From Escherichia coli (GTDB taxonomy: Bacteria > Pseudomonadota > Gammaproteobacteria > Enterobacterales > Enterobacteriaceae): a DNA stretch of 64,000 nt. Location of the stretch: NCBI RefSeq assembly GCF_051903065.1, contig NZ_CP178438.1. One strand, written 5' to 3'. Position 1 is the stretch's first letter. Every line of letters starts with the position of its first letter. Position numbers and translations under genes: made by a program. Below, one piece after another: positions 10,064-55,946 of the stretch. The notes under the pieces were generated by a model that saw nothing but the letters and a program-made list of their open reading frames with translations, ran no database searches and had not been told where the DNA came from.

Positions 10064-10094
10064 AGGCCACCTTCTAATAGGTGGCTTTTTTATT
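10064..10094 (+). terminator. rho-independent terminator
   Basis: AGGCCACC-TTCTAATA-GGTGGCTT stem-loop followed by TTTTTATTTT. Confidence 0.6.
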
Positions 10095-10106
10095 TTCGGA
10101 GTGTAT

Positions 10107-11435
10107 ATGACGTGGAAAGACAGGCTTCAGGATGCGTCATTTCGAGGTGTGCCGTTTAAGGTTGAAGAAGAAAGTGCGGGAACCGGCCGTCGTGTGGAAA
10201 CACACGAATATCCGAACCGCGACAAACCCTATACCGAAGATCTGGGAAAAGTCACTTTCCGCCCGTCCATCACGGCTTATGTGGTGGGAGATGACTGCTT
10301 TGACCAGCGCGATCGCCTGATTGACGCGCTGAATAAACCCGGTCCCGGCACGCTTGTCCACCCGACATACGGTGAGTTGAAAGTCTGTGTTGACGGGGAA
10401 GTTCGGGTCAGCACATCGAAGAGTGAAGGGCGTATTGTCCGCTTTGACCTGAAGTTTGTCGAAGCGGGAGATCTCTCTTACCCCACATCAGGCGTGGCGA
10501 CGGCGCAGACGCTGATGTCATCCTGTTCTGCACTGGATGACTGCATCAGTGACAGCTTCAGCGGTTTCAGTATCGATGGCGTGGCGGATTTTGTGCAGAA
10601 CGACGTTATCGGTAATGCCAGCACAATGCTTGGGTATGTTTCTGATGCGATGAAAGTGGTGGATTCTGCCGTATCGGATGCCGCCAGGCTGTTGCAGGGT
10701 GATATCTCGGTACTTCTGCCGCCGCCATCGTCAGGCAAAAATTTCGTTGAGCAGGTGCAGAAAATGTGGCGTACCGGGAAACGCCTTTATGGTAACGCCA
10801 GCGACCTGGTCACCATGATCAAAACGCTTTCCGGTGTCAGCCTCGGCAGCGATCTGCAACCGCGCGGCGTCTGGAAAACGGACAGTAAAACCACCGCCAC
10901 GGCGACGCAGCAGCGTAACGTGGTTGCCAGCACCCTTCGTACGACCGCAATCAGCGAAGCGGCGTATGCCGTCATCCGATTGCCTGCGCCAACAACTTCC
11001 GCGGTGATGCAGAATGCCACAGTGGGGCAGGCAACAACACCCGCGCAGAGCACTGGCTGGCCTTCCGTCACGCATCCGGCACTGAACAATGCACCGGCGG
11101 TGAAAAACACGGTTGACCTGCCGACGTGGGAAGAACTGACTGACATTCGCGACACACTGAATACGGCAATTGATAAGGAGTTGTCCCGTACAACCAGCGA
11201 TGCGCTGTTTCTGGCGCTGCGCCGGGTGAAAGCAGATCTGAATGCGGATATCAACACGCGCCTTGAACAGTCTGCACGGATCATTCAGCGCACACCGGAT
11301 GAGGTTTTACCCGCGCTGGTGCTGGCGGCGACCTGGTTTGATAACGCGGCGCGTGACGCGGACATTATCCGGCGTAATGCCATTACGCATCCCGGCTTTG
11401 TGCCGGTGATCCCTCTGAAGGTGCCAGTGCAATGA
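10107..11435 (+). CDS. DNA circularisation protein (Mu gp43-like tail protein)
   Basis: ATG at 10107 five nt after GGAG; N-terminal region resembles the DNA-circulation family; position after tape measure as in Mu-like tails. Confidence 0.7.
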   Translation: MTWKDRLQDASFRGVPFKVEEESAGTGRRVETHEYPNRDKPYTEDLGKVTFRPSITAYVVGDDCFDQRDRLIDALNKPGPGTLVHPTYGELKVCVDGEVRVSTSKSEGRIVRFDLKFVEAGDLSYPTSGVATAQTLMSSCSALDDCISDSFSGFSIDGVADFVQNDVIGNASTMLGYVSDAMKVVDSAVSDAARLLQGDISVLLPPPSSGKNFVEQVQKMWRTGKRLYGNASDLVTMIKTLSGVSLGSDLQPRGVWKTDSKTTATATQQRNVVASTLRTTAISEAAYAVIRLPAPTTSAVMQNATVGQATTPAQSTGWPSVTHPALNNAPAVKNTVDLPTWEELTDIRDTLNTAIDKELSRTTSDALFLALRRVKADLNADINTRLEQSARIIQRTPDEVLPALVLAATWFDNAARDADIIRRNAITHPGFVPVIPLKVPVQ

Positions 11436-12511
11436 ACGACAATGTCACGCTACGGGTAAATGGCCGGGAGTGGAATGGCTGGACATCGGTGCGCATCGGT
11501 GCCGGTATTGAACGGTTGGCGCGGGATTTCAGTGTGGAGATCACCCGCCAGTGGCCGGGTGATGAGGGTATTACCACGCTTCAGCCGCGCATTAAAAACG
11601 GTTCAAAAGTGGAGGTGCTGATTGGTGATGAGCTGGTGATCACCGGCTGGGTGGAGGCGACGCCCGTTCGTTACGATGCCCGTTCGGTCAGCACCGGTAT
11701 TGCCGGACGTAGTCTGACGGCTGACCTGATTGACTGTGCAGCCGAACCGACACAGTTTAACGGACGATCACTGGTACAGATTGCGCAGGCGCTTGCTGCG
11801 CCCTTCGGCATTGAGGTGGTGAACAGCAGTGCGCCGTCGGGTGTTATTCCTGATGTCCAGCCTGATCACGGTGAAACGGTGATCGAGGTGATTAACAAAA
11901 TACTCGGTCAGCAGCAGGCGCTGGCTTATGACGACCCGCACGGCAGGCTGGTGATTGGCGGTATTGGCTCAACGCGGGCACATACCGCGCTGGTACTCGG
12001 GGAAAACATCCTTTCCTGCGATACGGAGAAGAGTATCCGGGAGCGATTTTCTGTTTACCAGGTGGCGGGGCAGCGTGCCGGAAACGACGATGATTTCGGT
12101 GAGGCCACCACCACCGCGCTGCGGGCCCGCACAGAGGACGCATTTATTGCCCGTTACCGTCCGATGTATATCAGGCAGACAGGGCAGGCTACGGGGGCAG
12201 GTTGTATTGCCCGTGCGGACTTTGAAGCCCGACAACGGGCGGCGCGGACGGATGAAACCACCTATGTGGTGCAGGGCTGGCGACAGGGTAACGGTACGCT
12301 GTGGCAGCCCAACCAGCGGGTGATTGTCTTTGATCCGGTCTGTGGTTTCGACAATACCGAACTGCTTGTCTCGGAAGTCACGTTTACTCAGGACCAGAAT
12401 GGCACCCTGACGGAAATCCGTGTCGGCCCACCTGATGCTTATCTGCCTGAACCCGAAGCCCCCGGCGCGCGGAAAAAGAAAAAAGCCAGAGTACAGGAGG
12501 ACCCGTTCTGA
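11432..12511 (+). CDS. baseplate hub / tail protein (Mu gp44, P2 gpD-like)
   Basis: 359-aa ORF, overlapping start (ATGA), Mu-like baseplate gene order. Confidence 0.6.
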   Translation: MNDNVTLRVNGREWNGWTSVRIGAGIERLARDFSVEITRQWPGDEGITTLQPRIKNGSKVEVLIGDELVITGWVEATPVRYDARSVSTGIAGRSLTADLIDCAAEPTQFNGRSLVQIAQALAAPFGIEVVNSSAPSGVIPDVQPDHGETVIEVINKILGQQQALAYDDPHGRLVIGGIGSTRAHTALVLGENILSCDTEKSIRERFSVYQVAGQRAGNDDDFGEATTTALRARTEDAFIARYRPMYIRQTGQATGAGCIARADFEARQRAARTDETTYVVQGWRQGNGTLWQPNQRVIVFDPVCGFDNTELLVSEVTFTQDQNGTLTEIRVGPPDAYLPEPEAPGARKKKKARVQEDPF

Positions 12512-13059
12512 TGAAGGCGATTGAAACCATACAGCGACAACTCCTCGGCCTGATTGGGCGGGCGGTGGTGAAAAGCATCAGTGCCGCCACGAAATGTCAG
12601 ACCGTGGATGTGTCCCTGATTGCCGGTGAACCCAAAGCCGGGGTTGAACATCTTGAACCCTACGGTTTTACCGCAAGGGCAAACAGCGGTGCGGAAGCGG
12701 TGGTGTTGTTTCCGGATGGTGACCGTTCTCATGCGGTGGTTGTTACGGTGTCGGACCGGCGCTACCGCCTGAAAGGGCTGCAGACGGGTGAGGTGGCTGT
12801 CTATGACGATCAGGGGCAGTCCGTGACGCTGACCCGGGCGGGGATCGTGGTGGACGGTGCAGGGAAAACGATCACGTTTCGCAATGCGCCTAAGGCTCGT
12901 TTTGAAATGGACCTGGAAGTGACCGGACAGGTGAAAGACCTGTGCGACTCCAGCGGCACCACCATGTCAGCGATGAGGCTTGCCTATAACGGGCATCGTC
13001 ACAGAGAGAACGGTCAGGGCAGTAACACCGACAAACCTGATAAAGCGATGGAGGCATGA
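12511..13059 (+). CDS. baseplate assembly protein V (spike)
   Basis: 182-aa ORF, gpV-like sequence, synteny. Confidence 0.65.
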   Translation: MKAIETIQRQLLGLIGRAVVKSISAATKCQTVDVSLIAGEPKAGVEHLEPYGFTARANSGAEAVVLFPDGDRSHAVVVTVSDRRYRLKGLQTGEVAVYDDQGQSVTLTRAGIVVDGAGKTITFRNAPKARFEMDLEVTGQVKDLCDSSGTTMSAMRLAYNGHRHRENGQGSNTDKPDKAMEA

Positions 13060-13484
13060 TGGAACTGTGGCTGACGGTGAACGGTAAACGCACCTGCGCC
13101 AGCGCACCGCTGGATCCGCTGACCCGTGCCGTGGTGATTTCCATGTTCACCTGGCGGCGGGCTGAACCTGATGACAATGCCGACGTCCCGATGGGATGGT
13201 GGGGGGATACCTGGCCTGCGGTACAGAATGACCGTTACGGCTCCCGACTGTGGCTGCTTCAGCGCAGCAAACTGACCAATCAGCTGGTGCAGACGGTAAG
13301 GGGGTATATCCGCGAATGCCTGCAATGGATGATTGATGATGGCGTGGTGTCCCGTATTGATCTGGATATCCGCCGCACCGGGATTAATGAACTGGGTAAC
13401 AGTATCACTCTCTGGCGTCGTGACGGACCGGTAATGATTTCTTTTGATGATCTGTGGAGTGCGATAACGCATGGCGGACAGTGA
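13056..13484 (+). CDS. baseplate protein (Mu gp46 / gpW-gp25-like)
   Basis: 142-aa ORF, overlapping start, synteny. Confidence 0.55.
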   Translation: MMELWLTVNGKRTCASAPLDPLTRAVVISMFTWRRAEPDDNADVPMGWWGDTWPAVQNDRYGSRLWLLQRSKLTNQLVQTVRGYIRECLQWMIDDGVVSRIDLDIRRTGINELGNSITLWRRDGPVMISFDDLWSAITHGGQ

Positions 13485-14529
13485 ATTTCAGCGTCCGACG
13501 CTGGCAGAAAATATCAGTATGCTCCGTAACGATTTATTCGCCAGGCTGGATGTCAGCGACACGCTCCGGCGCATGGATGAAGACGTGCGGGCAATGGTGT
13601 ATGCGGCGGCGCTGCATACGGTTTACGGGTACATCGATTATCTGGCAATGAACATGCTGCCTGACCTGTGCGATGAGTCCTGGCTGGCGCGACATGCTGC
13701 GATGAAACGGTGTCCGCGCAAGGGGGCCACGGCTGCCAGCGGGTATATGCGCTGGGAAGGTGTCAGCGATGGCCTGAAGGTGACCGCCGGGAGTGTTATT
13801 CAGCGCGATGACCTGGTGCAGTACACGGCAACTGCCGATGCAACCAGCTCCGGTGGTGTCCTGCGCGTGCCGATCGCCTGCTCAAGTGCAGGCGCGGTCG
13901 GTAACGCTGACGACGGTACGGCATTAATCCTGGTCACGCCGGTGAATGGTCTGCCGTCTTCCGGTGTGGCTGACACCCTGACAGGCGGATTTGATACTGA
14001 AGAGCTGGAAACGTGGCGCGCCCGCGTCATTGAGCGGTATTACTGGACGCCGCAGGGCGGGGCTGACGGGGACTATGTCGTCTGGGCTAAAGAAGTGCCC
14101 GGCATTACCCGCGCATGGACATACCGTCACTGGATGGGAACGGGGACTGTCGGTGTGATGATTGCCAGCAGCGACCTGATTAATCCCATTCCGGAAGAAT
14201 CAACGGAAACGGCGGCAAGACAACATATCGGGCCACTGGCTCCGGTGGCAGGCTCTGATTTGTATGTGTTCAGGCCGGTGGCACATACGGTGGATTTTCA
14301 TATCCGCGTTACGCCGGATACACCGGAAATACGAGCCGCCATCACCGCGGAGTTGCGTTCGTTCCTGTTGCGTGATGGTTATCCGCAGGGAGAACTGAAG
14401 GTATCGCGTATCAGTGAGGCGATTTCCGGTGCAAACGGGGAATACAGCCATCAGTTGCTTGCACCGGCGGACAATATCTCCATTGCAAAAAATGAACTGG
14501 CGGTTCTGGGGACGATTTCATGGACGTGA
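13471..14529 (+). CDS. baseplate J-like protein (Mu gp47)
   Basis: 352-aa ORF, synteny between gpW-like and gpI-like genes. Confidence 0.7.
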
Positions 14530-15104
14530 CAAACGATGATTACATCCGTCTGTTGTCGGCACTGTTGCCCCCCGGTCCGGCGTGGTCAGCCAGCGATCCG
14601 GCGATTGCCGGTGCGGCACCTTCATTAACTCGTGCTCATCAGCGTGCGGATGCCCTGATGCGGGAGCTGGATCCGCGCACCACCACTGAACTGATAAACC
14701 GCTGGGAGCGTCTGTGCGGTCTGCCGGATGAATGTATTCCCGCAGGGACACAGACCCTTCGCCAGCGTCAGCAACGGCTGGATGCGAAGGTTAACCTGGC
14801 GGGCGGCATCAACGAGGATTTTTATCTTGCACAGCTTGCTGTCCTGGGCAGACCAGATGCCACCATCACGCGATACGACAAAAGCACGTTCACCTGCTCA
14901 TCGGCCTGTACTGACGCTGTGAACGCGCCTGAATGGCGGTATTACTGGCAGGTCAACATGCCAGCCGCCACCAACACCACCTGGATGACATGTGGCGATC
15001 CCTGTGATTCCGCACTGCGTATCTGGGGCGACACAGTTGTCGAATGTGTGCTTAACAAACTCTGCCCGTCGCATACCTACGTAATTTTTAAATATCCGGA
15101 GTAA
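14520..15104 (+). CDS. tail protein (Mu gp48 / P2 gpI-like)
   Basis: 194-aa ORF, synteny immediately upstream of tail fibre gene. Confidence 0.6.
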
Positions 15105-15107
15105 TCC

Positions 15108-15833
15108 ATGCATCGTATAGACACGAAAACCGCGCAGAAGGATAAGTTCGGCGCGGGTAAGAACGGTTTTACCCGTGGTAACCCCCAGACCGGCACGCCT
15201 GCCACCGATCTGGATGATGACTACTTTGACATGTTGCAGGAGGAGCTTTGCAGCGTTGTGGAGGCGTCCGGTGCCAGCCTGGAGAAGGGGCGGCACGACC
15301 AGCTACTTACCGCGCTTCGCGCGCTGCTGTTAAGCCGCAAGAATCCGTTTGGCGATATCAAATCGGATGGCACGGTGAAAACGGCTCTCGAAAACCTTGG
15401 TTTGGGGGAAGGCTCTGCGTTGCCCGTTGGTGTACCTGTTCCGTGGCCCTCAGCCACACCGCCAGCAGGGTGGCTGAAATGTAACGGCGCAGCATTTTCT
15501 TCTGAAATGTACCCCAATCTGGCAAAGGCTTATCCTACAAATAAATTACCGGATTTACGCGGTGAGTTTATTCGTGGCTGGGATGATGGGCGTGGAGTGG
15601 ATAGTGGGCGCGCGTTATTATCAACTCAAACAGATGAATTTAAATCACATAGTCATTATTTCGAAAGAACATGGGCACAAACTGGATTTGATACAACAGG
15701 TGGATATTATCTTTTAGCCGCTGATGTTTCTGGCTCAGTAAATCAACAGAGATCCGATAGCACTAACTCGGTGGGGGGGAGAGAATCTCGCCCTCGTAAT
15801 ATTGCATTTAACTATATTGTGAGAGCTGTGTAA
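15108..15833 (+). CDS. tail fibre protein; constant N-terminus (15108-15397) joined to variable C-terminus inside the invertible segment
   Basis: 241-aa ORF; crossover site lies inside the ORF at 15392-15403; followed by tail fibre assembly gene. Confidence 0.65.
15392..15403. other. left invertase crossover site (AAACC-TT-GGTTT)
   Basis: Dyad-symmetric site resembling gix/cix/hix; inverted copy at 17301-17312. Confidence 0.5.
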
Positions 15834-16435
15834 TGGATAATGCTGTATTAAATAGCGAACATATTGCTACGAAGGCTGGAAATGTTACTGTTTATAACTT
15901 TGACGGTGAAACGCGAGAGTATATTTCCCCATCTATTGAATATATTGCCGTTGGTGTCGGTATTCCGGCATATTCATGTTTAGATGCTCCTGCCACACGT
16001 AAAGATGGTTATGCAATTTGCCGTTCTGCAGATTTTAACTCATGGGAATATGTGCCAGACCATCGCGGTGAAACGGTCTATAGCACTGAAACAGGAGAAT
16101 CAAAAGAAATCACAGCTCCGGGTGATTACCCTGAAAATACAACCACTATCTCCCCATTAACGCCATACGATAAATGGGATGGTGAGAAATGGGTGACCGA
16201 TACTGAAGCACAGCATAGCGCCGCAGTAGACGCGGCAGAAGCACAGCGCCAGTCACTGATTAATGCTGCAATGGCTTCCATTAGTCTGATTCAGCTGAAA
16301 TTACAGGCCGGACGGAAACTGACGCAGGCAGAAACAACCCGGCTTAACGCTGTGCTGGATTACATTGACGCGGTGATGGCAACAGATACCAGCACCGCGC
16401 CGAATGTCATCTGGCCTGAACTGCCGGAGGCGTAG
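15833..16435 (+). CDS. tail fibre assembly protein (current orientation)
   Basis: 200-aa ORF overlapping tail fibre stop; Tfa-like. Confidence 0.6.
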   Translation: MDNAVLNSEHIATKAGNVTVYNFDGETREYISPSIEYIAVGVGIPAYSCLDAPATRKDGYAICRSADFNSWEYVPDHRGETVYSTETGESKEITAPGDYPENTTTISPLTPYDKWDGEKWVTDTEAQHSAAVDAAEAQRQSLINAAMASISLIQLKLQAGRKLTQAETTRLNAVLDYIDAVMATDTSTAPNVIWPELPEA

Positions 16436-16850
16436 GCCATTCAATATCTGGAGCACTGGAGGGATCAACCAGTTCCAGTGCGTCCAGATAATCCAGCCAT
16501 AAATTATATTGTTCCAGCTCGTCACCTTTCAGACGACCAATAGCAGCTTTGCCAGGCCACTGATGGGTATTGATGTAGGTATTGGCTTCTGAAACCAAAG
16601 ATATTTTTTTCATTTCAGCCGTCAATACCTCATCCTCTTTTGAAGGTGGTGGGGAATTAATCCATACTGGCCGTCCTGAACTGTCAGCGCCAATTTCTTT
16701 CCCTTCTGGATGCAGCCCAAGAAATTGCTCATATATTTCTCTGGTAATTTCAATAACATCATCAGGAAGCGTTCCCGCATCCTCATATTCTGGAAATAAT
16801 TCTTGCAGATAAAAACTTTTACTTCCGGGTGAAAAGAATACTGAGTTCAT
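16407..16850 (-). CDS. alternative tail fibre assembly protein (inverted copy)
   Basis: 147-aa ORF on opposite strand, convergent with 15833-16435; C-terminus similar in character (EWPxPP motif). Confidence 0.55.
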   Translation of the reverse strand: MNSVFFSPGSKSFYLQELFPEYEDAGTLPDDVIEITREIYEQFLGLHPEGKEIGADSSGRPVWINSPPPSKEDEVLTAEMKKISLVSEANTYINTHQWPGKAAIGRLKGDELEQYNLWLDYLDALELVDPSSAPDIEWPTPPAVQAR

Positions 16851-16852
16851 TC

Positions 16853-17307
16853 TTACCGTCCAATGATTAACGCTGATACGCTGGTATCTGAAGGAAAGGC
16901 TGCATTCAGTGGTTTGTCGACTTTGAACACAATCGTATTATTCCCCCTGACAGCGGCAAAAGAACAAGCCGCCGTCGCGTATGAACCTGTAATATTACTG
17001 GATACACCACCATAAGCTGTTGTTGATACCAGAGGGATAACGCCCAGCACCTTATTAGGAAATACAAAGGGCAATGTGGCTGTGGCAATATAAGACTTAT
17101 TAGAGCCTGTAATGGCATAAGCATTATCAGTCATTCCATTCATCGCCACTGGACCGCTTATACTTACAGTAACCATCTGAATGATTAGCCCGTCAGGTTG
17201 ACGAATCACAAAATTTCCATTGCCACCAGTAACCGTCCAGAAAGACATATCAGGGATTTGGTTTTCCCCGTTGCCCACATTCCGTTTTGCCGCTTCTCCC
17301 AAACCAA
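16853..17307 (-). CDS. alternative tail fibre variable C-terminal segment (promoterless until inversion)
   Basis: ORF open on minus strand up to the right crossover site; no independent start expected. Confidence 0.5.
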
Positions 17308-17312
17308 CGTTT
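17301..17312. other. right invertase crossover site (AAACC-AA-CGTTT)
   Basis: Inverted repeat of the site at 15392-15403. Confidence 0.5.
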
Positions 17313-17373
17313 ATGAAAATGCAGAAATAACGAGCAAATGGCATCATTCCTGCTTTTGTCAGGGAGATCTACC

Positions 17374-17928
17374 ATGCTTATTGGCTATGTACGTGTGTCA
17401 ACAAATGACCAGAACACAGATCTACAACGTAATGCGCTGAACTGTGCAGGATGCGAGCTGATTTTTGAAGACAAGATAAGCGGTACAAAGTCCGAAAGGC
17501 CGGGACTGAAAAAACTGCTCAGGACATTATCGGCAGGTGACACTCTGGTTGTCTGGAAGCTGGATCGGCTAGGGCGTAGTATGCGGCATCTGGTCATTCT
17601 GGTTGAGGAGTTGCGCGAACGTGGCGTTAATTTTCGCAGCCTGACGGATGCTATTGATACCAGCACACCGATGGGGCGTTTTTTCTTTCATGTGATGGGT
17701 GCCCTGGCTGAAATGGAACGAGAACTGATTGTTGAACGAACAAAAGCTGGACTGGAAGCTGCTCGCGCACAGGGACGAATTGGTGGACGTCGTCCCAAAC
17801 TTACACCAGAACAATGGGCGCAGGCCGGGCGATTAATTGCATCAGGCGTTCCTCGCCAGAAGGTGGCGATCATCTATGATGTTGGTATATCGACACTGTA
17901 TAAGAAGTTTCCGGTCGGAGATAAATGA
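17374..17928 (+). CDS. site-specific DNA invertase, serine recombinase (Pin/Gin/Hin family)
   Basis: N-terminus MLIGYVRVSTNDQNTDLQ with catalytic Ser; AGGGAG RBS; C-terminal HTH; located beside the invertible segment. Confidence 0.9.
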   Translation: MLIGYVRVSTNDQNTDLQRNALNCAGCELIFEDKISGTKSERPGLKKLLRTLSAGDTLVVWKLDRLGRSMRHLVILVEELRERGVNFRSLTDAIDTSTPMGRFFFHVMGALAEMERELIVERTKAGLEAARAQGRIGGRRPKLTPEQWAQAGRLIASGVPRQKVAIIYDVGISTLYKKFPVGDK

Positions 17929-17966
17929 AACCGTAGCACGTCGTATGCAAGATCGTGCTGCGGTTT
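17928..17966. repeat. hairpin-forming repeat A (13-bp arms, 13-nt loop), probable terminator-like element
   Basis: AAACCGTAGCACG-N13-CGTGCTGCGGTTT directly after invertase stop; imperfect direct copy at 18947-18983. Confidence 0.5.
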
Positions 17967-17985
17967 ATGCTTATCACTTAAAGAC

Positions 17986-18855
<870 letters not shown>

Positions 18856-18946
18856 CTAATCCTTTGAATTTACATAGTAAAAAAGATACTTTTCCTCATA
18901 GTGTGAGCTAATTTTATGTTTCGTTTGATGATCGGACCGGTCTCAA

Positions 18947-18983
18947 AAACCGCAGGCACGTTGTATGCAAGAACGTGCTGTGG
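18947..18983. repeat. repeat B, degenerate copy of repeat A
   Basis: AAACCGCAGGCACGTTGTATGCAAGAACGTGCTGTGG; about 36 of 41 positions match repeat A by hand alignment. Confidence 0.45.
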
Positions 18984-19318
18984 CTGGCTGGTGAACTTCC
19001 AATAGTGCGAATATTGAATGATTTCTATCTGTTATAGATTTTACCGTATTTCGGCATGAATGAAACTGAATATCCTCCCACCGATTCTCCATGACTTTAC
19101 GCCACTGTCTCTAGGGCTGCTATGTGCCAGAGGCGGACGTTGTTAAAATAGAAAATATCCCAACCTTGTATGAGTCGTGCAATAATTTCGAACTTTATAC
19201 AAAGCTTTGGTTGTAAAGGTGTATAACCACAAGTGACATTAATCACATTTGTAAAGGCAAAATGCAACAAACTGAATTAGTTAATTGCGTAAATTTGAAG
19301 TTATGTTAAGGTGGTGAT

Positions 19319-19451
19319 GGTTTATGGGCAGATTTTGGGTCGCGTTTCGCGATCAGTGAAAAAAATGTCCGATAGGATTGCCTTTCAGGATCTCATGTTC
19401 CTCGCATTTCTTAAGGTTCTTGTCAAGTTTGCGTAAGAGTGCCCATAAACC
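19319..19451 (+). ncRNA. candidate retron msr/msd non-coding RNA bounded by a1/a2 inverted repeats
   Basis: Perfect 12-bp inverted repeat GGTTTATGGGCA (19319-19330) / TGCCCATAAACC (19440-19451), the latter 19 nt upstream of the RT start; internal hairpin TCGCG-TTT-CGCGA at 19340-19352. Confidence 0.4.
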
Positions 19452-19470
19452 CTTTTAGAGGCGATCTAAA

Positions 19471-21306
19471 GTGAAACGACTACAATCATTAAAAGAAGCA
19501 AAAACAAAACCAGACTTGGCTAAGCTATTAGGAATCAAACCTTCAGCGTTAACATACTGCCTATATGTATTAAAACCTGAAAATCAATACACACAGTTTA
19601 AGATACCAAAAAAAAATGGCGGCGAACGGATAATAAGTGCACCTAACGGAATATTAAAGACGATACAGTCATCCTTATCAAGACTGCTTCTAGATTGCTT
19701 AGACGAAATAGTTTGCATTAAGTTTCCAGACTCAGAGTTAGCAAGGCAGAAAGCAAAAAACTCAAAAATATTAAAGTTAAAATGTTCCAACTCAGAAATC
19801 AAACAACCCTCACTGTCTCATGGATTTGAAAGAAAGCGTTCAATTATTACAAATGCAATGATGCACTTGGGGAAAAAATATGTTTTTAATATAGACTTGG
19901 ATAATTTTTTCGGCAGTTTTAACTTTGGTAGAGTCCGAGGTTTTTTCATAAAAAATAGAAACTTTGCACTCGATCCGGAAATCGCAACTGTAATTGCTAA
20001 AATTGCGTGCTACAACAATGAACTACCCCAAGGCAGCCCATGCTCCCCAGTAATCACTAATCTAATCACTCACTCGTTAGACATTAAACTGGCAGCGATT
20101 GCATCAAGAAACTCATCCACTTTTACAAGATATGCTGATGATATTACATTCTCTACGAGGAAGGGGGAGTTTCCTTCTGCTATAGCAAAAAATCAAAATG
20201 GTAAATATATCGTTAGTAAGAAAATTAGGGGCGAGATAACTCGCTCAGGTTTTATAATTAATGATGGGAAGACAAGAAATCAGTATAAAGACTCGAGGCA
20301 AGATGTAACAGGCTTAGTGGTTAATAAAAAGCCAAACACGAAAAAAGAATATTGGAGGCTTGTGCGTGCGCAATGTGACCATTTATTTAAACATGGTGAG
20401 TTCTTAGAGGTGATTGACGGCAAGGAAATAAAGGGGAATGTTAATAGCCTTGCAGGCAAACTTAACTTCATAGACCAAGTTGACCACTATAATAGATTGC
20501 GTCAAGGCGAAAAATTAAATCCAAAATATCACTTAAAAAAAGATGCCAATAAAAATGGCCATGCCAAAAAAAGGCGTTACTTACATAGTTCTAGAGAAAA
20601 AACGTTTAGTGAGTTTCTCTTCTATCGTTTATTTTATGGCAATGAATTACCAACAATTCTTACGGAAGGTAAAACTGACAATATTTATCTGAAGGCAGCA
20701 ATACATAAGTTAGCCTCATCATTCCCTAATTTGGCGGTCGCTGAAAGTCCAGGGCTCTCTTATAAGCCACGGACTAAATTTGTTAACTACAATGAGCGGA
20801 CAAAATATTTACTTGAACTTTATGGTGGTGCTGATTATTTAAAGGATTTTGTTATTCATTATAAACAACACTTTAATCGTTATAAGGCTCCCAAACCATC
20901 TAATCCAGTAATTATACTTGTTGATAATGATAGCGGACCAAAAGATCTGATTAATTACGTTAGTAAAGTTGATAATATTGGTATTTTCCCCACAGGTGTT
21001 CCAGATATCCGCGCCTCTGAGTTTGTACATATTTTTTGTAATCTTTATTTAGTGCTTACCCCTCAAGTTAAGGGATATACAGGAACTGATATAGAGCATT
21101 TTTTTAAAGATACAGATCGACTTAGACCACATAAAGGTAAGTTTTTCAATACAGTCTCTAAGCGTGATCATGATAATGATTTGAGCAAGGAATCTTTCGC
21201 AACTCATATTGTTCATGCCCACAAGCATGAAATTGATTTTAGTGGATTTACAAGCCTGTTAGAACGGTTAGTAAAAGTCATAAATCACTTTGACACTGTT
21301 AAGTAA
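19471..21306 (+). CDS. retron-type reverse transcriptase fused to a C-terminal Toprim domain (Retron-Eco2/Ec67-like architecture)
   Basis: 611 aa; NAMMH (NAxxH) at about 128-132, motif A NIDLDNFF, QGSPCSP, YADD at 221-224, VTG at 279-281; C-terminal TEGKTD and DND motifs suggestive of Toprim; GTG start after AGAGG. Confidence 0.8.
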   Translation: MKRLQSLKEAKTKPDLAKLLGIKPSALTYCLYVLKPENQYTQFKIPKKNGGERIISAPNGILKTIQSSLSRLLLDCLDEIVCIKFPDSELARQKAKNSKILKLKCSNSEIKQPSLSHGFERKRSIITNAMMHLGKKYVFNIDLDNFFGSFNFGRVRGFFIKNRNFALDPEIATVIAKIACYNNELPQGSPCSPVITNLITHSLDIKLAAIASRNSSTFTRYADDITFSTRKGEFPSAIAKNQNGKYIVSKKIRGEITRSGFIINDGKTRNQYKDSRQDVTGLVVNKKPNTKKEYWRLVRAQCDHLFKHGEFLEVIDGKEIKGNVNSLAGKLNFIDQVDHYNRLRQGEKLNPKYHLKKDANKNGHAKKRRYLHSSREKTFSEFLFYRLFYGNELPTILTEGKTDNIYLKAAIHKLASSFPNLAVAESPGLSYKPRTKFVNYNERTKYLLELYGGADYLKDFVIHYKQHFNRYKAPKPSNPVIILVDNDSGPKDLINYVSKVDNIGIFPTGVPDIRASEFVHIFCNLYLVLTPQVKGYTGTDIEHFFKDTDRLRPHKGKFFNTVSKRDHDNDLSKESFATHIVHAHKHEIDFSGFTSLLERLVKVINHFDTVK

Positions 21307-21365
21307 TATTATGATGCGCACTGATTATTCCTTATTCAGCTAAAATTTCTGGTAATGACTCCAAC

Positions 21366-21869
21366 TTATTGATAGTGTTTTATGTTCAGATAATGCCCGA
21401 TGACTTTGTCATGCAGCTCCACCGATTTTGAGAACGACAGCGACTTCCGTCCCAGCCGTGCCAGGTGCTGCCTCAGATTCAGGTTATGCCGCTCAATTCG
21501 CTGCGTATATCGCTTGCTGATTACGTGCAGCTTTCCCTTCAGGCGGGATTCATACAGCGGCCAGCCATCCGTCATCCATATCACCACGTCAAAGGGTGAC
21601 AGCAGGCTCATAAGACGCCCCAGCGTCGCCATAGTGCGTTCACCGAATACGTGCGCAACAACCGTCTTCCGGAGCCTGTCATACGCGTAAAACAGCCAGC
21701 GCTGGCGCGATTTAGCCCCGACATAGCCCCACTGTTCGTCCATTTCCGCGCAGACGATGACGTCACTGCCCGGCTGTATGCGCGAGGTTACCGACTGCGG
21801 CCTGAGTTTTTTAAGTGACGTAAAATCGTGTTGAGGCCAACGCCCATAATGCGGGCTGTTGCCCGGCAT
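21366..21869 (-). CDS. insB: IS1 InsB
   Basis: 167-aa ORF matching the remembered IS1 InsB sequence. Confidence 0.9.
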
Positions 21870-22063
21870 CCAACGCCATTCATGGCCATATCAATGATTT
21901 TCTGGTGCGTACCGGGTTGAGAAGCGGTGTAAGTGAACTGCAGTTGCCATGTTTTACGGCAGTGAGAGCAGAGATAGCGCTGATGTCCGGCGGTGCTTTT
22001 GCCGTTACGCACCACCCCGTCAGTAGCTGAACAGGAGGGACAGCTGATAGAAACAGAAGCCAC
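21788..22063 (-). CDS. insA: IS1 InsA
   Basis: 91-aa ORF matching the remembered IS1 InsA sequence (zinc-finger CPSC...CSHC). Confidence 0.9.
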
Positions 22064-22382
22064 TGGAGCACCTCAAAAACACCATCATACACTAAATCAG
22101 TAAGTTGGCAGCATCACCCCCTTTTCGTATATGCTAACCGTGAGCGGGAGTGAACAAGTCACCATAGCCAGGAACACTAGCGGCGTAATTCTTAAGCTGA
22201 GTGGCATTTCACCTGCGGTTTATCAGTGCATTCATAGTACCTTCATCAGCCAGATTGAACGAGTCAGCTTAGAATTTGCTGGCGAGGTTGTCACTATGAA
22301 GCATGAGAGTTACCTCAATGTTTATATAAGGATTCGGTCCCCATACCTGGAACGGTAACTCTCAATCTGATCGGTTCCTGAG

Positions 22383-24071
22383 TCAGTTCAAATCACGACT
22401 CATTTTTTTCGCTCTCACCGGCATCCCATTTGCCACAAAATATCCCGCCGTGCTCCTCGGCAACGCTCCCTGTCCACGAATCATGTCCGCTATTTTCTCG
22501 CCAATCATAATTGTCGTGGCGTTCAAATTCCCGGTGATAATCTGCGGCATAATTGACGCATCCACCACGCGCAGGCCTTCCAGCCCATGCACGCGGCCTT
22601 CGCCGTCAACCACTGCCATCTCGTCATAACCCATTTTGCAGGTACCGCACGGGTGGAAGGCGGTTTCGGCGTGGTTACGCACGAACTCATCGAGTTGCTC
22701 ATCCGTCTGACATTCCGTGCCGGGGCTGATTTCGCGGCCACGATACTGATCCAGCGCCGGTTGATGCATGATCTCGCGGGTGATGCGAATTGCGTCGCGG
22801 AACTCCTGCCAGTCCTGCTCGTGCGACATGTAGTTAAACAGAATCGCCGGATGCTGGTGCGGGTCGCGGGATTTAATCCGCACATGCCCACGGCTTGGCG
22901 AGCGCATCGATCCGACGTGGCACTGGAAGCCGTGCTCTTTCACTGCATTCGAGCCGTTATAGTTAATCGCTACCGGCAGGAAGTGATACTGAATATTCGG
23001 CCACGCAAATTCCTCTCGGCTGCGAATAAATCCGCCTGCTTCAAAGTGGTTGCTGGCACCAACGCCGGTGCCGCCAAACAGCCACTCCGCACCGATTTTC
23101 GGCTGATTCCACCACTGCAGGGCAGGGTAGAGGGAAACCGGTTCTTTGCACTCATATTGCAGATACATCTCCAGATGATCCTGAAGATTTTCACCGACGC
23201 CGGGTAAATCATGCACCAGCGGAATATCAAACTCCGCCAGCAGTTCAGCGCTACCCACGCCGGAACGTTGCAGGATCTGCGGAGAGGCGATCGCACCTGC
23301 ACATAACAGCACCTCTTTATTCGCTGTCGCGCGGGTTGGAATGGTGCTGTCGCCTTCCTGCCACTCGACGCCCACCGCGCGTTTGCCGTCAAAAATGATG
23401 TGATCGGTCATAGCGCGAGTACGAATGGTCAGGTTAGGGCGCGATTTGGCCTGATCGAGATAGCCGCGCGCGGTACTGGCGCGACGGCCCTGCGGCGTGA
23501 CGGTGCGATCCATCGGACCAAAACCTTCCTGCTGATAACCGTTGAGATCGTCCGTGCGCGGGTAGCCCGCCTGCACGCCCGCTTCAATCATCGCTTCAAA
23601 CAGCGGATTGACGCCGGGTTTGGAGGTAGTGACGCTCACCGGGCCATCGCCACCGTGGTAGTCGTTCTCGCCCACATCGCGAGTCTCGGCCTTGCGGTAG
23701 TAGGGCAGGCAGTCGAGATAACTCCAGTTCTCCAGACCGGGTTCTTGCGCCCAGTTATCGAGATCCAGCGCATTGCCACGGATGTAGCACATGCCGTTGA
23801 TCAGCGACGATCCACCCAGACCTTTACCGCGTCCGCACTCCATGCGGCGGTTATTCATAAACGGTTCAGGTTCCGTTTCATAGGCCCAGTTGTAGCGTTT
23901 ACCCTGTAGCGGGAATGCCAGGGCAGCGGGCATCTGGGTGCGGAAGTCAAAGCGATAGTCCGGGCCGCCCGCTTCAAGCAGCAGCACGGAGGTATTCGGA
24001 TCTTCAGTCAGACGGGTAGCGAGAACGTTGCCGGCTGAGCCGGCACCAATAATGATGTAGTCAAATTGCAA
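22383..24071 (-). CDS. betA: choline dehydrogenase
   Basis: Translation matches BetA ([20 protein letters not shown]...); apparent TTG start 5 nt after AGGAGG, because the supplied ORF extends upstream without an in-frame ATG. Confidence 0.9.
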
Positions 24072-26286: not shown

Positions 26287-28320
26287 ATGACAGACCTTTC
26301 ACACAGCAGGGAAAAGGACAAAATCAATCCGGTGGTGTTTTACACCTCCGCCGGACTGATTTTGTTGTTTTCCCTGACAACGATCCTGTTTCGCGACTTC
26401 TCGGCCCTGTGGATTGGCCGCACGCTGGACTGGGTTTCTAAAACCTTCGGTTGGTACTATCTGCTGGCGGCAACGCTCTATATTGTCTTTGTGGTCTGTA
26501 TCGCTTGTTCGCGTTTTGGTTCGGTGAAGCTCGGGCCAGAACAATCCAAACCGGAATTCAGCCTGCTGAGTTGGGCGGCGATGCTGTTTGCTGCCGGGAT
26601 CGGTATCGATCTGATGTTCTTTTCCGTAGCCGAACCGGTAACGCAGTATATGCAGCCGCCGGAAGGCGCGGGACAGACGATTGAGGCCGCGCGTCAGGCG
26701 ATGGTCTGGACGCTGTTTCACTACGGCTTAACCGGCTGGTCGATGTATGCGCTGATGGGCATGGCGCTCGGATACTTTAGCTATCGTTATAATTTGCCGC
26801 TCACCATCCGCTCGGCGCTGTACCCGATCTTCGGTAAACGGATTAACGGGCCGATAGGTCACTCAGTGGATATTGCAGCGGTGATCGGCACTATCTTCGG
26901 TATTGCCACTACGCTCGGTATCGGTGTGGTGCAGCTTAACTATGGCTTGAGCGTACTGTTTGATATTCCCGATTCGATGGCGGCAAAAGCGGCACTGATC
27001 GCCTTGTCGGTGATAATCGCCACTATCTCGGTGACATCCGGTGTCGATAAGGGCATTCGCGTGTTATCGGAGCTTAATGTCGCGCTGGCGCTGGGATTGA
27101 TCCTGTTCGTGTTGTTTATGGGCGACACTTCGTTCCTGCTTAATGCACTGGTGCTGAATGTTGGCGACTATGTGAATCGCTTTATGGGCATGACGCTCAA
27201 CAGTTTTGCCTTCGACCGTCCAGTTGAGTGGATGAATAACTGGACGCTCTTCTTCTGGGCATGGTGGGTGGCATGGTCGCCGTTTGTCGGCTTGTTCCTG
27301 GCGCGTATCTCGCGTGGGCGTACCATTCGCCAGTTCGTGCTGGGCACGTTGATTATTCCGTTTACCTTCACGCTGTTATGGCTCTCGGTGTTCGGCAATA
27401 GCGCGCTGTATGAAATCATCCACGGCGGCGCGGCATTTGCAGAGGAAGCGATGGTCCATCCGGAGCGCGGCTTCTACAGCCTGCTGGCGCAGTATCCGGC
27501 GTTTACCTTTAGCGCCTCCGTCGCCACCATTACTGGCCTGCTGTTTTATGTGACCTCGGCGGACTCCGGGGCGCTGGTGCTGGGGAATTTCACCTCGCAG
27601 CTTAAAGATATCAACAGCGACGCCCCCGGCTGGCTGCGCGTCTTCTGGTCGGTGGCGATTGGCCTGCTGACGCTCGGCATGCTGATGACCAACGGGATAT
27701 CCGCGCTGCAAAACACCACGGTGATTATGGGGCTGCCGTTCAGCTTTGTGATTTTCTTCGTGATGGCGGGGTTGTATAAATCTCTGAAAGTAGAAGATTA
27801 CCGCCGTGAAAGTGCCAACCGCGATACCGCGCCGCGACCGCTGGGGCTTCAGGATCGCCTGAGTTGGAAAAAACGTCTCTCGCGCCTGATGAATTATCCG
27901 GGCACGCGTTACACTAAACAGATGATGGAGACGGTCTGTTACCCGGCAATGGAAGAAGTGGCGCAGGAGCTGCGGTTGCGCGGCGCGTACGTGGAGCTAA
28001 AAAGCCTGCCGCCGGAAGAGGGACAACAGTTGGGGCATCTGGATTTGTTGGTGCATATGGGCGAAGAGCAAAACTTTGTCTATCAGATTTGGCCGCAGCA
28101 ATATTCGGTGCCGGGCTTTACCTACCGCGCACGTAGCGGTAAATCGACTTACTACCGGCTGGAAACTTTCCTGTTAGAAGGCAGCCAGGGCAACGACCTG
28201 ATGGACTACAGCAAAGAGCAGGTGATCACCGATATTCTTGACCAGTACGAGCGGCACCTTAACTTTATTCATCTCCATCGTGAAGCGCCGGGCCATAGCG
28301 TGATGTTCCCGGACGCGTGA
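26287..28320 (+). CDS. betT: choline transporter (BCCT family)
   Basis: 677-aa ORF matching BetT. Confidence 0.9.
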   Translation: MTDLSHSREKDKINPVVFYTSAGLILLFSLTTILFRDFSALWIGRTLDWVSKTFGWYYLLAATLYIVFVVCIACSRFGSVKLGPEQSKPEFSLLSWAAMLFAAGIGIDLMFFSVAEPVTQYMQPPEGAGQTIEAARQAMVWTLFHYGLTGWSMYALMGMALGYFSYRYNLPLTIRSALYPIFGKRINGPIGHSVDIAAVIGTIFGIATTLGIGVVQLNYGLSVLFDIPDSMAAKAALIALSVIIATISVTSGVDKGIRVLSELNVALALGLILFVLFMGDTSFLLNALVLNVGDYVNRFMGMTLNSFAFDRPVEWMNNWTLFFWAWWVAWSPFVGLFLARISRGRTIRQFVLGTLIIPFTFTLLWLSVFGNSALYEIIHGGAAFAEEAMVHPERGFYSLLAQYPAFTFSASVATITGLLFYVTSADSGALVLGNFTSQLKDINSDAPGWLRVFWSVAIGLLTLGMLMTNGISALQNTTVIMGLPFSFVIFFVMAGLYKSLKVEDYRRESANRDTAPRPLGLQDRLSWKKRLSRLMNYPGTRYTKQMMETVCYPAMEEVAQELRLRGAYVELKSLPPEEGQQLGHLDLLVHMGEEQNFVYQIWPQQYSVPGFTYRARSGKSTYYRLETFLLEGSQGNDLMDYSKEQVITDILDQYERHLNFIHLHREAPGHSVMFPDA

Positions 28321-36568: not shown

Positions 36569-36581
36569 CCTACATGTTCAT

Positions 36582-37046
36582 GCCGGATGCGGCGTGAACG
36601 CCTTATCCGGCCTACGAATGGCGCAAGAATCTGTAGGCCTGATAAGCGTAGCGCATCAGGCATTTGTCACCATTGCCGGATGCGGCGTGAACGCCTTATC
36701 CGGCCCACGAATGGCACGAGAATCTGTAGGCCTGATAAGCGTAGCGCATCAGGCATTTGTCACCATTGCCGGATGCGGCGTGAACGCCTTATCCGGCCTA
36801 CGAATGGCGCAAGAATTGTAGGCCTGATAAGCGTAGCGCATCAGGCATTTGTCACCATTGCCGGATGCGGCGTGAACGCCTTATCCGGCCCACGAATGGC
36901 ACGAGAATTTGTAGGCCTGATAAGCGTAGCGCATCAGGCATTTGTCACCATTGCCGGATGCGGCGTGAACGCCTTATCCGGCTTACGAGTGGCACGAGAA
37001 TTTGTAGGCCTGATAAGCGTAGCGCATCAGGCAATTTGGCGTTGGT
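36582..37046. repeat. tandem REP/BIME array, 5 units of about 93 bp
   Basis: Five near-identical tandem units each containing GCCGGATGCGGCGTGAACGCCTTATCCGGCCTAC and GTAGGCCTGATAAGCGTAGCGCATCAGGC palindromic units. Confidence 0.85.
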
Positions 37047-55814: not shown

Positions 55815-55852
55815 TCGGCTGGGCTGTGTGTTGACAAAGCGAGCGTAGTTTA

Positions 55853-55933
55853 TGCCGGATGCGGCGTGAACGCCTTATCCGGCCTACGTAGAGCACTGAA
55901 CTCGTAGGCCTGATAAGCGTAGCGCATCAGGCA
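55853..55933. repeat. REP element pair
   Basis: GCCGGATGCGGCGTGAACGCCTTATCCGGCCTAC and GTAGGCCTGATAAGCGTAGCGCATCAGGC. Confidence 0.7.
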
Positions 55934-55946
55934 ATTGTGTCAGTGG

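Follow-up and report, generated by a model that had tools for sequence, protein, structure and literature searches.

In a 64-kb stretch of E. coli DNA (hereafter the window), we identified an invertible tail-fibre switch within a prophage, which we assign with high confidence to the e14 P-segment family as the orthologue of the P region of e14. Two inverted crossover sites bracket the switch segment, an intact invertase gene lies beside it, two alternative fibre C-termini fuse in frame to a single constant N-terminus, and both orientations are present in nature, with the crossover falling within 10 bp. The Pin tail-fibre switch itself is already known: it is a textbook system, and public annotation labels this locus accordingly, with RefSeq naming the invertase gene pinE and labelling YmfQ likewise. 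The P segment and PinE of E. coli K-12 were reportedly described by Plasterk and van de Putte in 1985 and by Mehta and colleagues in 2004. The features of the locus are collected in Table 1.

Table 1. Features of the P-segment switch, in window coordinates
Feature	Coordinates	Strand	Size	Remarks
stf, tail-fibre gene	15108–15833	+	241 aa	contains pixL
Constant 5' part of stf	15108–15396	+		codons 1–96 and first base of codon 97
pixL, left crossover site	15385–15410			12-bp half-site, TT core (15397–15398), 12-bp half-site; inside fibre gene stf
Invertible segment (P segment)	15397–17307		1,911 bp	both cores counted
Variable fibre C-terminus A, tail-collar type	15399–15833	+		joined to constant part in window orientation
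tfa, tail-fibre assembly chaperone A	15833–16435	+	200 aa	
Second tfa, tail-fibre assembly chaperone B	16407–16850	-	147 aa	
Variable fibre C-terminus B	16853–17305	-		separate from constant part in window orientation
pixR, right crossover site	17294–17319			core AA on + strand (17306–17307), TT read outside to inside
Short in-frame leader with ATG, MMPFARYFCIFIN-V	17308–17347	-		outside segment
pin, serine DNA invertase	17374–17928	+	184 aa	complete
Homologue of recombinational (Fis-dependent) enhancer	17392–17463			5' end of pin, gene nt 19–90

An earlier note on this DNA had proposed that dyad-symmetric, mutually inverted sites bracket the segment, the left one inside the tail-fibre gene. 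The pattern AAACSWWSGTTT has only two matches in the window, which are pixL and pixR (chance expectation, 0.09), and in none of 100 shuffles did it match two or more times. The dyads themselves, AAACCTTGGTTT at 15392–15403 and AAACCAACGTTT at 17301–17312, lie inside a 20-nt inverted repeat (15392–15411 and 17293–17312, 90% complementary). Read from outside to inside, the core dinucleotide is TT at both pixL and pixR, so the two sites are inverted relative to each other, and pixL does lie within stf. The left site is a dyad as described, whereas the right one is imperfect (AAACC versus AAACG).

The 26-bp sites could be aligned with the pix sites of K-12 e14, the gix sites of Mu and the cix sites of P1 (Table 2); a failure to align with the consensus, which the same note had named as grounds for abandoning its reading, was not seen. 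The outer 14 nt of both pixL and pixR are identical to those of their K-12 counterparts, and the inner half of pixL differs from that of K-12 pixL by one base. The e14 inverted repeats have been published as TTGGTTTGGGAGAAGG and CCTTCTCCCAAACCAA (PMC12529663), each with one mismatch to the window's pixL and pixR. The locus therefore has the two inverted 26-bp sites of the Hin/Gin/Cin/Pin invertases, with imperfect 12-bp half-sites around the same 2-bp core.

Table 2. Alignment of the crossover sites of the window with those of known systems
Site	Outer half	Core	Inner half
Window pixL	GGCTCTCGAAAACC	TT	GGTTTGGGGGAAGG
Window pixR	CATTTTCATAAACG	TT	GGTTTGGGAGAAGC
K-12 pixL	GGCTCTCGAAAACC	TT	GGTTTGGGAGAAGG
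K-12 pixR	CATTTTCATAAACG	TT	GGTTTGGGAGAAGG
Mu gix (L / R)	GTTTATCCAAAACC / CATTATCCAAAACC	TC	GGTTTACAGGAAAC
P1 cix (L / R)	TTCAATCCTAAACC / TGTTATCCAATACC	TT	GGTTTAAGAGAACT

Some inversion systems use more than two sites. The Min system of p15B and the R64-type shufflons likewise rely on inversion to diversify the C-terminal end of a surface or adhesion protein, but their crossover sites are many, unlike the two pix-like sites found here, and the shufflon recombinase is of the tyrosine type. A search of the window for additional crossover sites, allowing up to three mismatches, found none at the locus and a third, weak match outside it, at 26437. As just two sites were found at the locus even at this threshold, we rejected a multi-site system of the Min or shufflon kind.

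Between the two sites, open reading frames and PHROGs matches revealed two convergent sets of genes, each consisting of a fibre C-terminus and an assembly gene, in the layout that had been described for them. The constant part of stf is unmoved in both orientations, and fibre residues 1–104 match the tail-fibre N-terminal families phrog_1396 and phrog_1858. C-terminus A matches the tail collar fibre family phrog_523 (E 1e-72) and is akin to the C-terminus of K-12 StfE; the chaperone that follows it matches phrog_105, tail fibre assembly (E 2e-97), and shares 179 of its 200 residues (90%) with K-12 TfaE. On the other side, C-terminus B matches only phrog_12714, a family with no assigned function, and, weakly, tail-fibre families such as phrog_1396. 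Chaperone B matches phrog_188, tail fibre assembly (E 5e-55), its C-terminal half is similar to K-12 TfaP, and its 3' end shares 29 nt with that of chaperone A. A search of the fibre and chaperone proteins against NCBIfam returned no family. Inverting the segment in silico at the core produced an uninterrupted, in-frame fibre of 247 aa, composed of the constant N-terminus and C-terminus B, and placed chaperone B downstream of it. The constant N-terminus can thus be joined to either of two C-termini, each with its own Tfa/U chaperone, to give a fibre of 241 or 247 aa, bearing out the proposal that inversion swaps both the C-terminus and the chaperone.

The invertase gene begins 66 nt outside the right core, just beyond the right site as anticipated. 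Its product has a Pfam Resolvase domain (residues 3–135, E 1e-51) followed by HTH_7 (residues 138–180, E 1e-12), matches the DNA invertase family phrog_125 (E 6e-97), and aligns over residues 1–181 with the Gin structure 3UJ3 (E 1e-93). It is 95.1% identical to K-12 PinE, 80% to Cin and 74% to Gin. The catalytic Ser9 is present in YVRVSTNDQ and the DRLGR motif is intact, so that Pin has the makeup of a small serine recombinase (~180–190 aa, with a catalytic N-terminus, a serine at position 9/10 and a C-terminal helix-turn-helix). The best phage match to Pin (97%), from vB_EcoM-689R6, was of no use for orientation, as its record is partial, opening with the invertase and not including the segment.

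Basic residues at Hin positions 47/48/51, together with Gln151, Arg154 and Leu155, are conserved only in Fis-dependent invertases (PMC3798978). In the window, K46/K47/R50 and Q149-A-G-R152-L153 of Pin correspond to these residues, with the offset in numbering taken from the motif pattern rather than from a full-length alignment to Hin. Nucleotides 19–90 of P1 cin are annotated as 'enhancer of Cin-mediated C-segment inversion', and the stretch at the same position in pin is 76% identical to the P1 enhancer and 97% identical to K-12 pinE, with conserved blocks TCAACAAATGA and GCAGGATGYGA. A search for the Fis motif G-N13-C gave candidates at pin nt 22–36 and 71–85, with centres 49 nt apart. Homology and position suggest that this stretch is a Fis-dependent enhancer. 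Rates of identical codons at conserved residues, compared with pinE, gin, cin and the invertase of a P2-like prophage, gave no excess of synonymous-site conservation inside nt 19–90 relative to outside (45% versus 39% against cin), a comparison of little power over 20–24 codons.

The earlier note had likened the locus to the Mu G and e14 P segments, and in the case of e14 the likeness amounts to orthology. Nucleotide identity to K-12 e14 is 97% over 13742–15412 (jayE-ymfQ-stfP) and 92% over 17293–17930 (pin), and the similarity of the constant region, which comprises baseplate J, YmfQ and the fibre N-terminus, stops at 15412, at the crossover site. The order of elements is that of the e14 P region: ymfQ, the stf N-terminus, pix, the P segment and pinE. 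As in K-12, the switch follows jayE-ymfQ, 66 nt separate the core from the start of pin, and an ATG leader lies outside the right site; the outer halves of the pix sites are identical, as are 95% of the amino acids of Pin and 90% of those of the TfaE-type chaperone. Unlike in K-12, cassette B (the tip and the N-terminal half of its chaperone) is unrelated to StfP/TfaP, and the segment is 1,911 bp rather than 1,797 bp. The prophage of the window also has a complete tail and baseplate module, in contrast to the K-12 remnant, in which the portal-to-baseplate block is missing; a nucleotide comparison found no e14 match to window positions 852–13741. Downstream of pin, PD-T4-3 and a type I-C retron take the place occupied by mcrA in K-12. 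An Rfam scan of 17300–22500 found no retron RNA family; its sole hit was a weak one, CssrB at 32 bits where the gathering score is 76. An unrelated, P2-like prophage on the same chromosome carries a cassette 99.6% identical to that of the window.

Based on its sequence, the leader outside pixR may supply a start codon to whichever cassette is unlinked from the constant part. An in-frame methionine 12–13 codons outside the right site occurs in the window, in K-12 e14, in the P2-like prophage and in Mu. This recurrence fits a reading in which the switch is chiefly a host anti-phage device, with the unlinked cassette expressed from the ATG leader to yield a free receptor-binding protein that keeps other phages from adsorbing, the action proposed for K-12 e14 StfE2. 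K-12 is reported to gain protection from T2 once the e14 P segment inverts, an event that gives rise to StfE2 (PMC12529663), and the neighbours of the switch in the window, PD-T4-3 and the retron, are defence genes. We nevertheless consider this reading unlikely. No cassette here has the C-terminus of K-12 StfP, to which the effect on T2 was assigned, and the switch ends a complete tail and baseplate module, so that, unlike in the K-12 remnant, a role in fibre swapping is available to it. The leader ATGs are poorly spaced from their Shine-Dalgarno sequences, and the promoter signal does not exceed chance, as a promoter and terminator scan of 14900–19600, which takes in any pin promoter and any promoters inside the segment, gave counts no higher than the shuffled expectation. 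An anti-phage role would also be compatible with one in host range.

An intact invertase with a single orientation ever observed had been named as a finding that would speak against switching, but the sister isolate E. coli 23CRST027 carries the flipped sequence. It matches the in-silico flip exactly (3001/3001 nt, 5542 bits), and BLAST shows 15392–17312 inverted between colinear flanks that differ by 3 mismatches and 2 gaps in ~17 kb. Two polymorphic positions, one C/G immediately 5' of the core and the other G/A at +9, confine the exchange to TTGGTTTGGG, a crossover interval between the isolates of 10 bp that includes the core. The 247-aa flipped fibre is annotated exactly in 23CRST027, and both exact fusion proteins are present in the public protein collection. 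A second pair of isolates, Cn5 and IrN, has opposite orientations with the same scores, in genomes that are 14 bp apart in length. Among genomes in which 80% or more of the 3-kb query was covered, 36 were oriented like the window and 17 were flipped; a minority of the matches on each side lie not in the e14-type locus but in that of the P2-like prophage. A census of junctions found the constant part joined to A in 511 genomes and to B in 39, which are not like-for-like counts of orientation, since many e14 alleles have tips of type A, and which show no more than that both junctions exist. Both orientations of the segment thus occur, and the exchange falls at the core. In K-12, clonal cultures of MG1655 contain both P-segment orientations (PMC4272514), the inverted fraction rises when PinE is overproduced, and deletion of pinE locks the segment (PMC12529663). 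From the near-identical sister isolates, we infer that inversion probably takes place in this very genome as well.

These data also bear on whether the locus is a fossil, its sites and invertase inherited, switching lost in the lineage and the differences in orientation old, which we judge very improbable. The RefSeq record of 23CRST031, a strain close to the source of the window, does have Pin R65W, within the catalytic DRLGR motif, and some annotated genes of these assemblies contain frameshifts, but the window pin is wild type and the same as that of 23CRST027. A second invertase of the genome could, moreover, flip the segment in trans, a role that PinQ plays for e14 (PMC12529663). The cassette of the P2-like prophage is also in opposite orientations in the two isolates, which differ at few positions in the ~17-kb flanks yet in orientation at both invertible loci, indicating that the flips are very recent. 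Barely credible, finally, is an origin of the orientation difference in RecA-dependent recombination between short inverted repeats or in an assembly artefact: a 20-nt inverted repeat exists and mixed reads let long-read assemblers pick either orientation, but 18 matching bases of 20 are much too short for efficient RecA exchange, the exchange lies within 10 bp holding the known crossover core, the same flip is seen at another locus that carries these sites, and a choice by the assembler requires both orientations in the culture, which itself favours switching.

For the P-segment switch that we favour, family knowledge suggests how inversion would proceed. Pin, of the Hin/Gin/Cin/Pin group, would bind as dimers to the two pix sites and, with host Fis on the enhancer, would form an invertasome on supercoiled DNA. 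Ser9 of Pin would then cut the central TT at both sites, a pair of half-sites would rotate by 180 degrees, and religation would complete a strand exchange that inverts the 1.9 kb. Because pixL lies in codon 97 of the fibre gene, inversion would replace the last 144 codons and TfaA, bringing in the 150-codon C-terminus B and chaperone TfaB, and the virions released by a population of lysogens would carry one or the other of two receptor-binding tips. Dependence on Fis and the enhancer, the chemistry of strand exchange and a different host range for each tip are expectations from the family, and we assume that the fibre, although short at 241 or 247 aa, is the main receptor-binding protein. Virion production by this prophage is putative, since its left part lies beyond the window and its small terminase gene is marked as frameshifted in RefSeq.

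Among other inversion systems, the G segment and Gin of Mu have the layout of this locus, with constant Sc followed by gixL, S-U, the converging U'-S', gixR and gin. A distance of 66–67 nt separates the right site or core from the start of gin, the fusion is in the same frame, with N-L-G-L across the site, Gin is 74% identical, and homology of the baseplate genes shows in the Mup43-48 labels of ON470584. Mu differs in its TC core, as opposed to TT, in its 3-kb G segment with longer fibres (S, 504 aa), and in being a transposing phage, whereas the prophage of the window has an HK97-type head and a terminase. The C segment and Cin of P1 share the TT core, similar half-sites, an invertase at 80% identity, an enhancer, putative in the window, at nt 19–90 of the invertase gene and a payload that swaps fibre tip and chaperone. 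In P1, however, it is the 3' end of cin that adjoins the segment, cixL overlaps the cin stop codon, and the segment is 4.2 kb. Hin of Salmonella is a recombinase of the same family that acts on 26-bp sites of the H segment, and the 5' end of hin carries a Fis enhancer ~100 bp away from the closer site (PMC3798978), much as the putative enhancer of the window lies at the 5' end of pin. In Salmonella a promoter is flipped and hin lies inside the segment, whereas here the 3' end of a coding sequence is swapped and pin lies outside.

The locus matters little beyond correct annotation. For one of the orientations, the alternative fibre and the unlinked cassette are named "hypothetical protein" in RefSeq, and recognizing the switch corrects these labels. 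A broader proposal, that the two invertases cross-act in a coupled network homogenizing both cassettes and that the unlinked cassette is expressed from the leader and blocks phages, seems doubtful to us; if true, what has been claimed for StfE2 in K-12 would apply more widely. The locus does show a complete e14-type tail and baseplate module with a P-segment switch and a clean natural flip between near-identical isolates, and the cassette of the second prophage and the defence genes adjoining pin provide context for prophage host range and defence hot spots.

By sequence, the locus is the P segment of the e14 prophage with its invertase PinE, an already known system that is labelled pinE in RefSeq and was reportedly described in 1985. 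K-12 e14 jayE-ymfQ-stfP and window 13742-15412 share 97% identity, with similarity ending at the crossover site; 17293-17930 is 92% identical to K-12 pixR-pinE, and 1-851 is 97.5% identical to e14 aaaE-ymfR-beeE. Nothing in K-12 e14 corresponds to 852-13741, which spans portal, head, sheath, tube, tape measure and baseplate, and both edges of this stretch are e14-like at 97%, so K-12 e14 looks like a deletion remnant of this prophage type. The Mu-like tail and baseplate module of the window prophage is complete.

We ordered the genes from ORFs and family searches (PHROGs, domain profiles). The earlier note had described two convergent sets of fibre C-terminus plus assembly gene between the sites, the left site inside the tail-fibre gene and a serine invertase just outside the right one, and this layout was borne out: the TfaA set (cassette A, joined to the constant part of the fibre) lies on the plus strand and the TfaB set (cassette B, unlinked) on the minus strand, the left core (TT, 15397-98) falls within codon 97, and the invertase start codon follows the right core (17306-07) after 66 nt. 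Cassette A (tail-collar tip and TfaA) resembles K-12 StfE/TfaE, with 179/200 residues identical between TfaA and TfaE. In the comparison with the K-12 e14 cassettes, the cassette B tip showed no relation to StfP.

Features of the invertible locus and its surroundings (window coordinates)
Feature	Position	Strand	Basis
Baseplate J	13471-14529	+	PHROGs
YmfQ-type wedge protein	14520-15104	+	PHROGs
Tail-fibre gene, 241 aa	15108-15833	+	phrog_1858, phrog_523
Left dyad, AAACCTTGGTTT	15392-15403		window sequence
Chaperone TfaA, 200 aa	15833-16435	+	phrog_105, E 2e-97
Chaperone TfaB, 147 aa	16407-16850	-	phrog_188
Second fibre C-terminus	16853-17305	-	phrog_12714, phrog_1396
Right dyad, AAACCAACGTTT	17301-17312		window sequence
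Invertase (pin), 184 aa	17374-17928	+	Resolvase + HTH_7; phrog_125 'DNA invertase', E 6e-97
Putative enhancer	17392-17463		homology to P1
Hairpin copies	17931-17968, 18950-18988		
PD-T4-3 GIY-YIG anti-phage gene	17986-18759	-	PADLOC E 2e-140; RefSeq 'LEM-3-like GIY-YIG'
12-nt perfect inverted repeat	19319-19330 / 19440-19451		
Retron Ec67-family RT-Toprim fusion, type I-C	19471-21306	+	NCBIfam 742 bits (cutoff 450); PADLOC E 4e-222
IS1A	about 21364-22061		
bet operon (betA, betB, betI, betT)	22381 onwards		
Tandem copies, yahG-yahI	36581-37038		BLAST self-offset matches

The two short dyads were found where they had been reported and are the sole matches in the 64-kb window to the pattern AAACSWWSGTTT (0.09 expected by chance; at least two matches in 0/100 shuffles). 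They are enclosed by an inverted repeat (15392-15411 / 17293-17312) in which 18 of 20 bases are complementary. Searching the 64-kb window with a longer consensus and three mismatches allowed returned the same two sites and one weak distant match at 26437, indicating a two-site rather than a multi-site system, which sets the locus apart from Min and from shufflons. We compared the sites with those of K-12 e14, Mu and P1, taken from annotation or defined by sequence, each read from outside to inside. They align with e14 pix, Mu gix and P1 cix, in keeping with the recombination-site consensus, and each has one mismatch to the published e14 P-segment repeats, TTGGTTTGGGAGAAGG / CCTTCTCCCAAACCAA (PMC12529663); on this alignment they are e14 pix sites.

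Crossover half-sites and cores, read outside to inside
Site	Outer	Core	Inner
Window pixL	GGCTCTCGAAAACC	TT	GGTTTGGGGGAAGG
Window pixR	CATTTTCATAAACG	TT	GGTTTGGGAGAAGC
K-12 pixL	GGCTCTCGAAAACC	TT	GGTTTGGGAGAAGG
K-12 pixR	CATTTTCATAAACG	TT	GGTTTGGGAGAAGG
Mu gixL	GTTTATCCAAAACC	TC	GGTTTACAGGAAAC
Mu gixR	CATTATCCAAAACC	TC	GGTTTACAGGAAAC
P1 cixL	TTCAATCCTAAACC	TT	GGTTTAAGAGAACT
P1 cixR	TGTTATCCAATACC	TT	GGTTTAAGAGAACT

The invertase, Pin, shares 95.1% amino-acid identity with K-12 PinE, 79.6% with Cin and 73.6% with Gin; its residues 1-181 align with 3UJ3, a crystal structure of Gin (E 1e-93), and Ser9 and the DRLGR motif are both preserved. PMC3798978 reports a set of residues confined to Fis-dependent invertases, namely basic ones at positions 47/48/51 of Hin together with Gln151/Arg154/Leu155; Pin carries K46/K47/R50 and Q149-x-x-R152-L153 at what look like the corresponding positions. 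The P1 record annotates a recombinational enhancer at cin nt 19-90, and the homologous window stretch and the right core are about 85 bp apart; in Hin, about 100 bp separate hixL from the proximal Fis site (PMC3798978). A weak test found no extra synonymous-site conservation in this stretch, and we therefore call it a putative enhancer by homology only. At 17566 the window has C and the RefSeq record of E. coli 23CRST031 has T, which turns R65 of Pin, in the catalytic DRLGR motif, into Trp (R65W); the wild-type Arg is kept in the window and in 23CRST027. Among phage records, the one closest to the window in Pin (97% amino-acid identity) is vB_EcoM-689R6 (ON470584.1, 1-2309), a partial genome that begins at the invertase; mcrA comes next, the side tail fibre is truncated and an invertible segment is absent. 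Its assembly was probably interrupted or collapsed at the invertible region.

Outside the invertase-side site, at a distance of 12-13 codons (17308-17347, minus strand), an in-frame Met ((M)MP...) provides the unlinked fibre C-terminus with a start codon; the window, K-12 e14, a P2-like prophage and Mu all have it. It is possible that the unlinked cassette, made from this leader, protects the host; the conserved ATG agrees with the report that P-segment inversion in K-12 creates StfE2, protecting from T2 (PMC12529663). However, with a complete tail module and no K-12 StfP tip in either window cassette, the locus does not call for this reading, and the leader, whose expression is hypothetical, may instead be a mere by-product of invertase-promoter constraints on the opposite strand.

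When 15397-17307 was flipped in silico, codons 1-96 and the site ran on in frame into C-terminus B; the resulting protein has 247 aa and its gene is followed directly by TfaB, so that inversion would swap both C-terminus and chaperone as proposed. The frame across both sites, AAC-NTT-GGT-TTG-GG, is the same in Mu and P1. Two substitutions and two indels separate the window from 23CRST031 (NZ_AP045800.1) over 38 kb. Each indel is a single C within a C run (3557 and 14568); at the latter, YmfQ is intact in the window and 'frameshifted' in RefSeq. The sister isolate 23CRST027 (same study, source and country; genome about 1 kb smaller) matches the flipped construct at 3001/3001 nt, with 15392-17312 inverted and colinear flanks by BLAST, and the 247-aa fusion ORF is in its annotation. 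Both orientations thus occur among assembled genomes, in contrast to the single orientation that the earlier note named as grounds for refuting the switch. The sites differ at two bases, and these locate the breakpoint. In 23CRST027 the base immediately 5' of the core (C/G) is still that of its flank, and the one nine bases inside the segment (G/A) has moved along with the inversion, placing the exchange within TTGGTTTGGG, core included. Cn5 and IrN likewise have opposite orientations, with identical scores and genome sizes 14 bp apart. Complete genomes covering at least 80% of a 3-kb query comprised 36 in the window orientation and 17 flipped, some matches being the P2-like prophage locus, and both exact fusion proteins are in public protein data. 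Clonal K-12 cultures contain the orthologous locus in both orientations (PMC4272514), and pinE deletion locks the segment (PMC12529663). A fossil locus at which switching has ended is unlikely, as the two near-identical isolates have opposite orientations at two loci. RecA exchange or an assembly artefact is also unlikely to explain the difference, because the repeat is just 20 nt and the exchange is at the core.

A second invertible cassette lies outside the window in a P2-like prophage of the sister genomes (L007 4009-5928, L008 4009-5923), within a P2-type tail gene cluster and with its own invertase gene. It is 99.6% identical to window 15392-17310 over 1,920 nt (6 mismatches, 1 gap), and the invertase gene is only 87% identical to pin in nucleotides, which suggests from sequence a recent cassette exchange between e14-type and P2-like prophages; cross-action of the two invertases is possible. 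This cassette, too, is oppositely oriented in 23CRST031 and 23CRST027.

After pin, the e14 slot holds mcrA in K-12 and the PD-T4-3 gene in the window. Two direct copies of an imperfect 40-nt hairpin (consensus AACCGyAG(G)CACGTyGTATGCAAGAwCGTGCTGyGG), about 1,020 bp apart, flank this gene and suggest that it is an inserted cassette. The inverted repeat just upstream of the retron RT may mark the msr-msd RNA; an Rfam search at the retron region matched no family. By annotation, IS1A lies directly 3' of the retron and is followed by the bet operon, so the right prophage end adjoins IS1 and betA, not icd as in K-12. Further along, a unit of about 93 nt is repeated about five times in tandem in the yahG-yahI intergenic region, which is annotated with small hypothetical ORFs, and one related copy is at 55848-55942.

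The standard mechanism of this invertase family is the best-supported account of the locus. Pin dimers would occupy the two pix sites, with a putative Fis-bound enhancer in the pin 5' end taking part; cleavage of both sites at the 2-bp core would go through a phosphoserine link, one half-site pair would rotate 180 degrees, and religation would exchange the fibre tip together with its chaperone, with tips that presumably differ in host range. The sites, the enzyme, the reading frame, both orientations and the position of the breakpoint are seen in the sequences, and Fis dependence and the strand-exchange chemistry are taken over from the family as likely. As the earlier note had suspected, the switch acts like Mu G/Gin, and also like P1 C/Cin, although in P1 the invertase gene adjoins the segment with a different end; Hin, in contrast, switches a promoter rather than a coding end. 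To this known system, the window makes minor additions: a particular cassette B and a complete prophage context.
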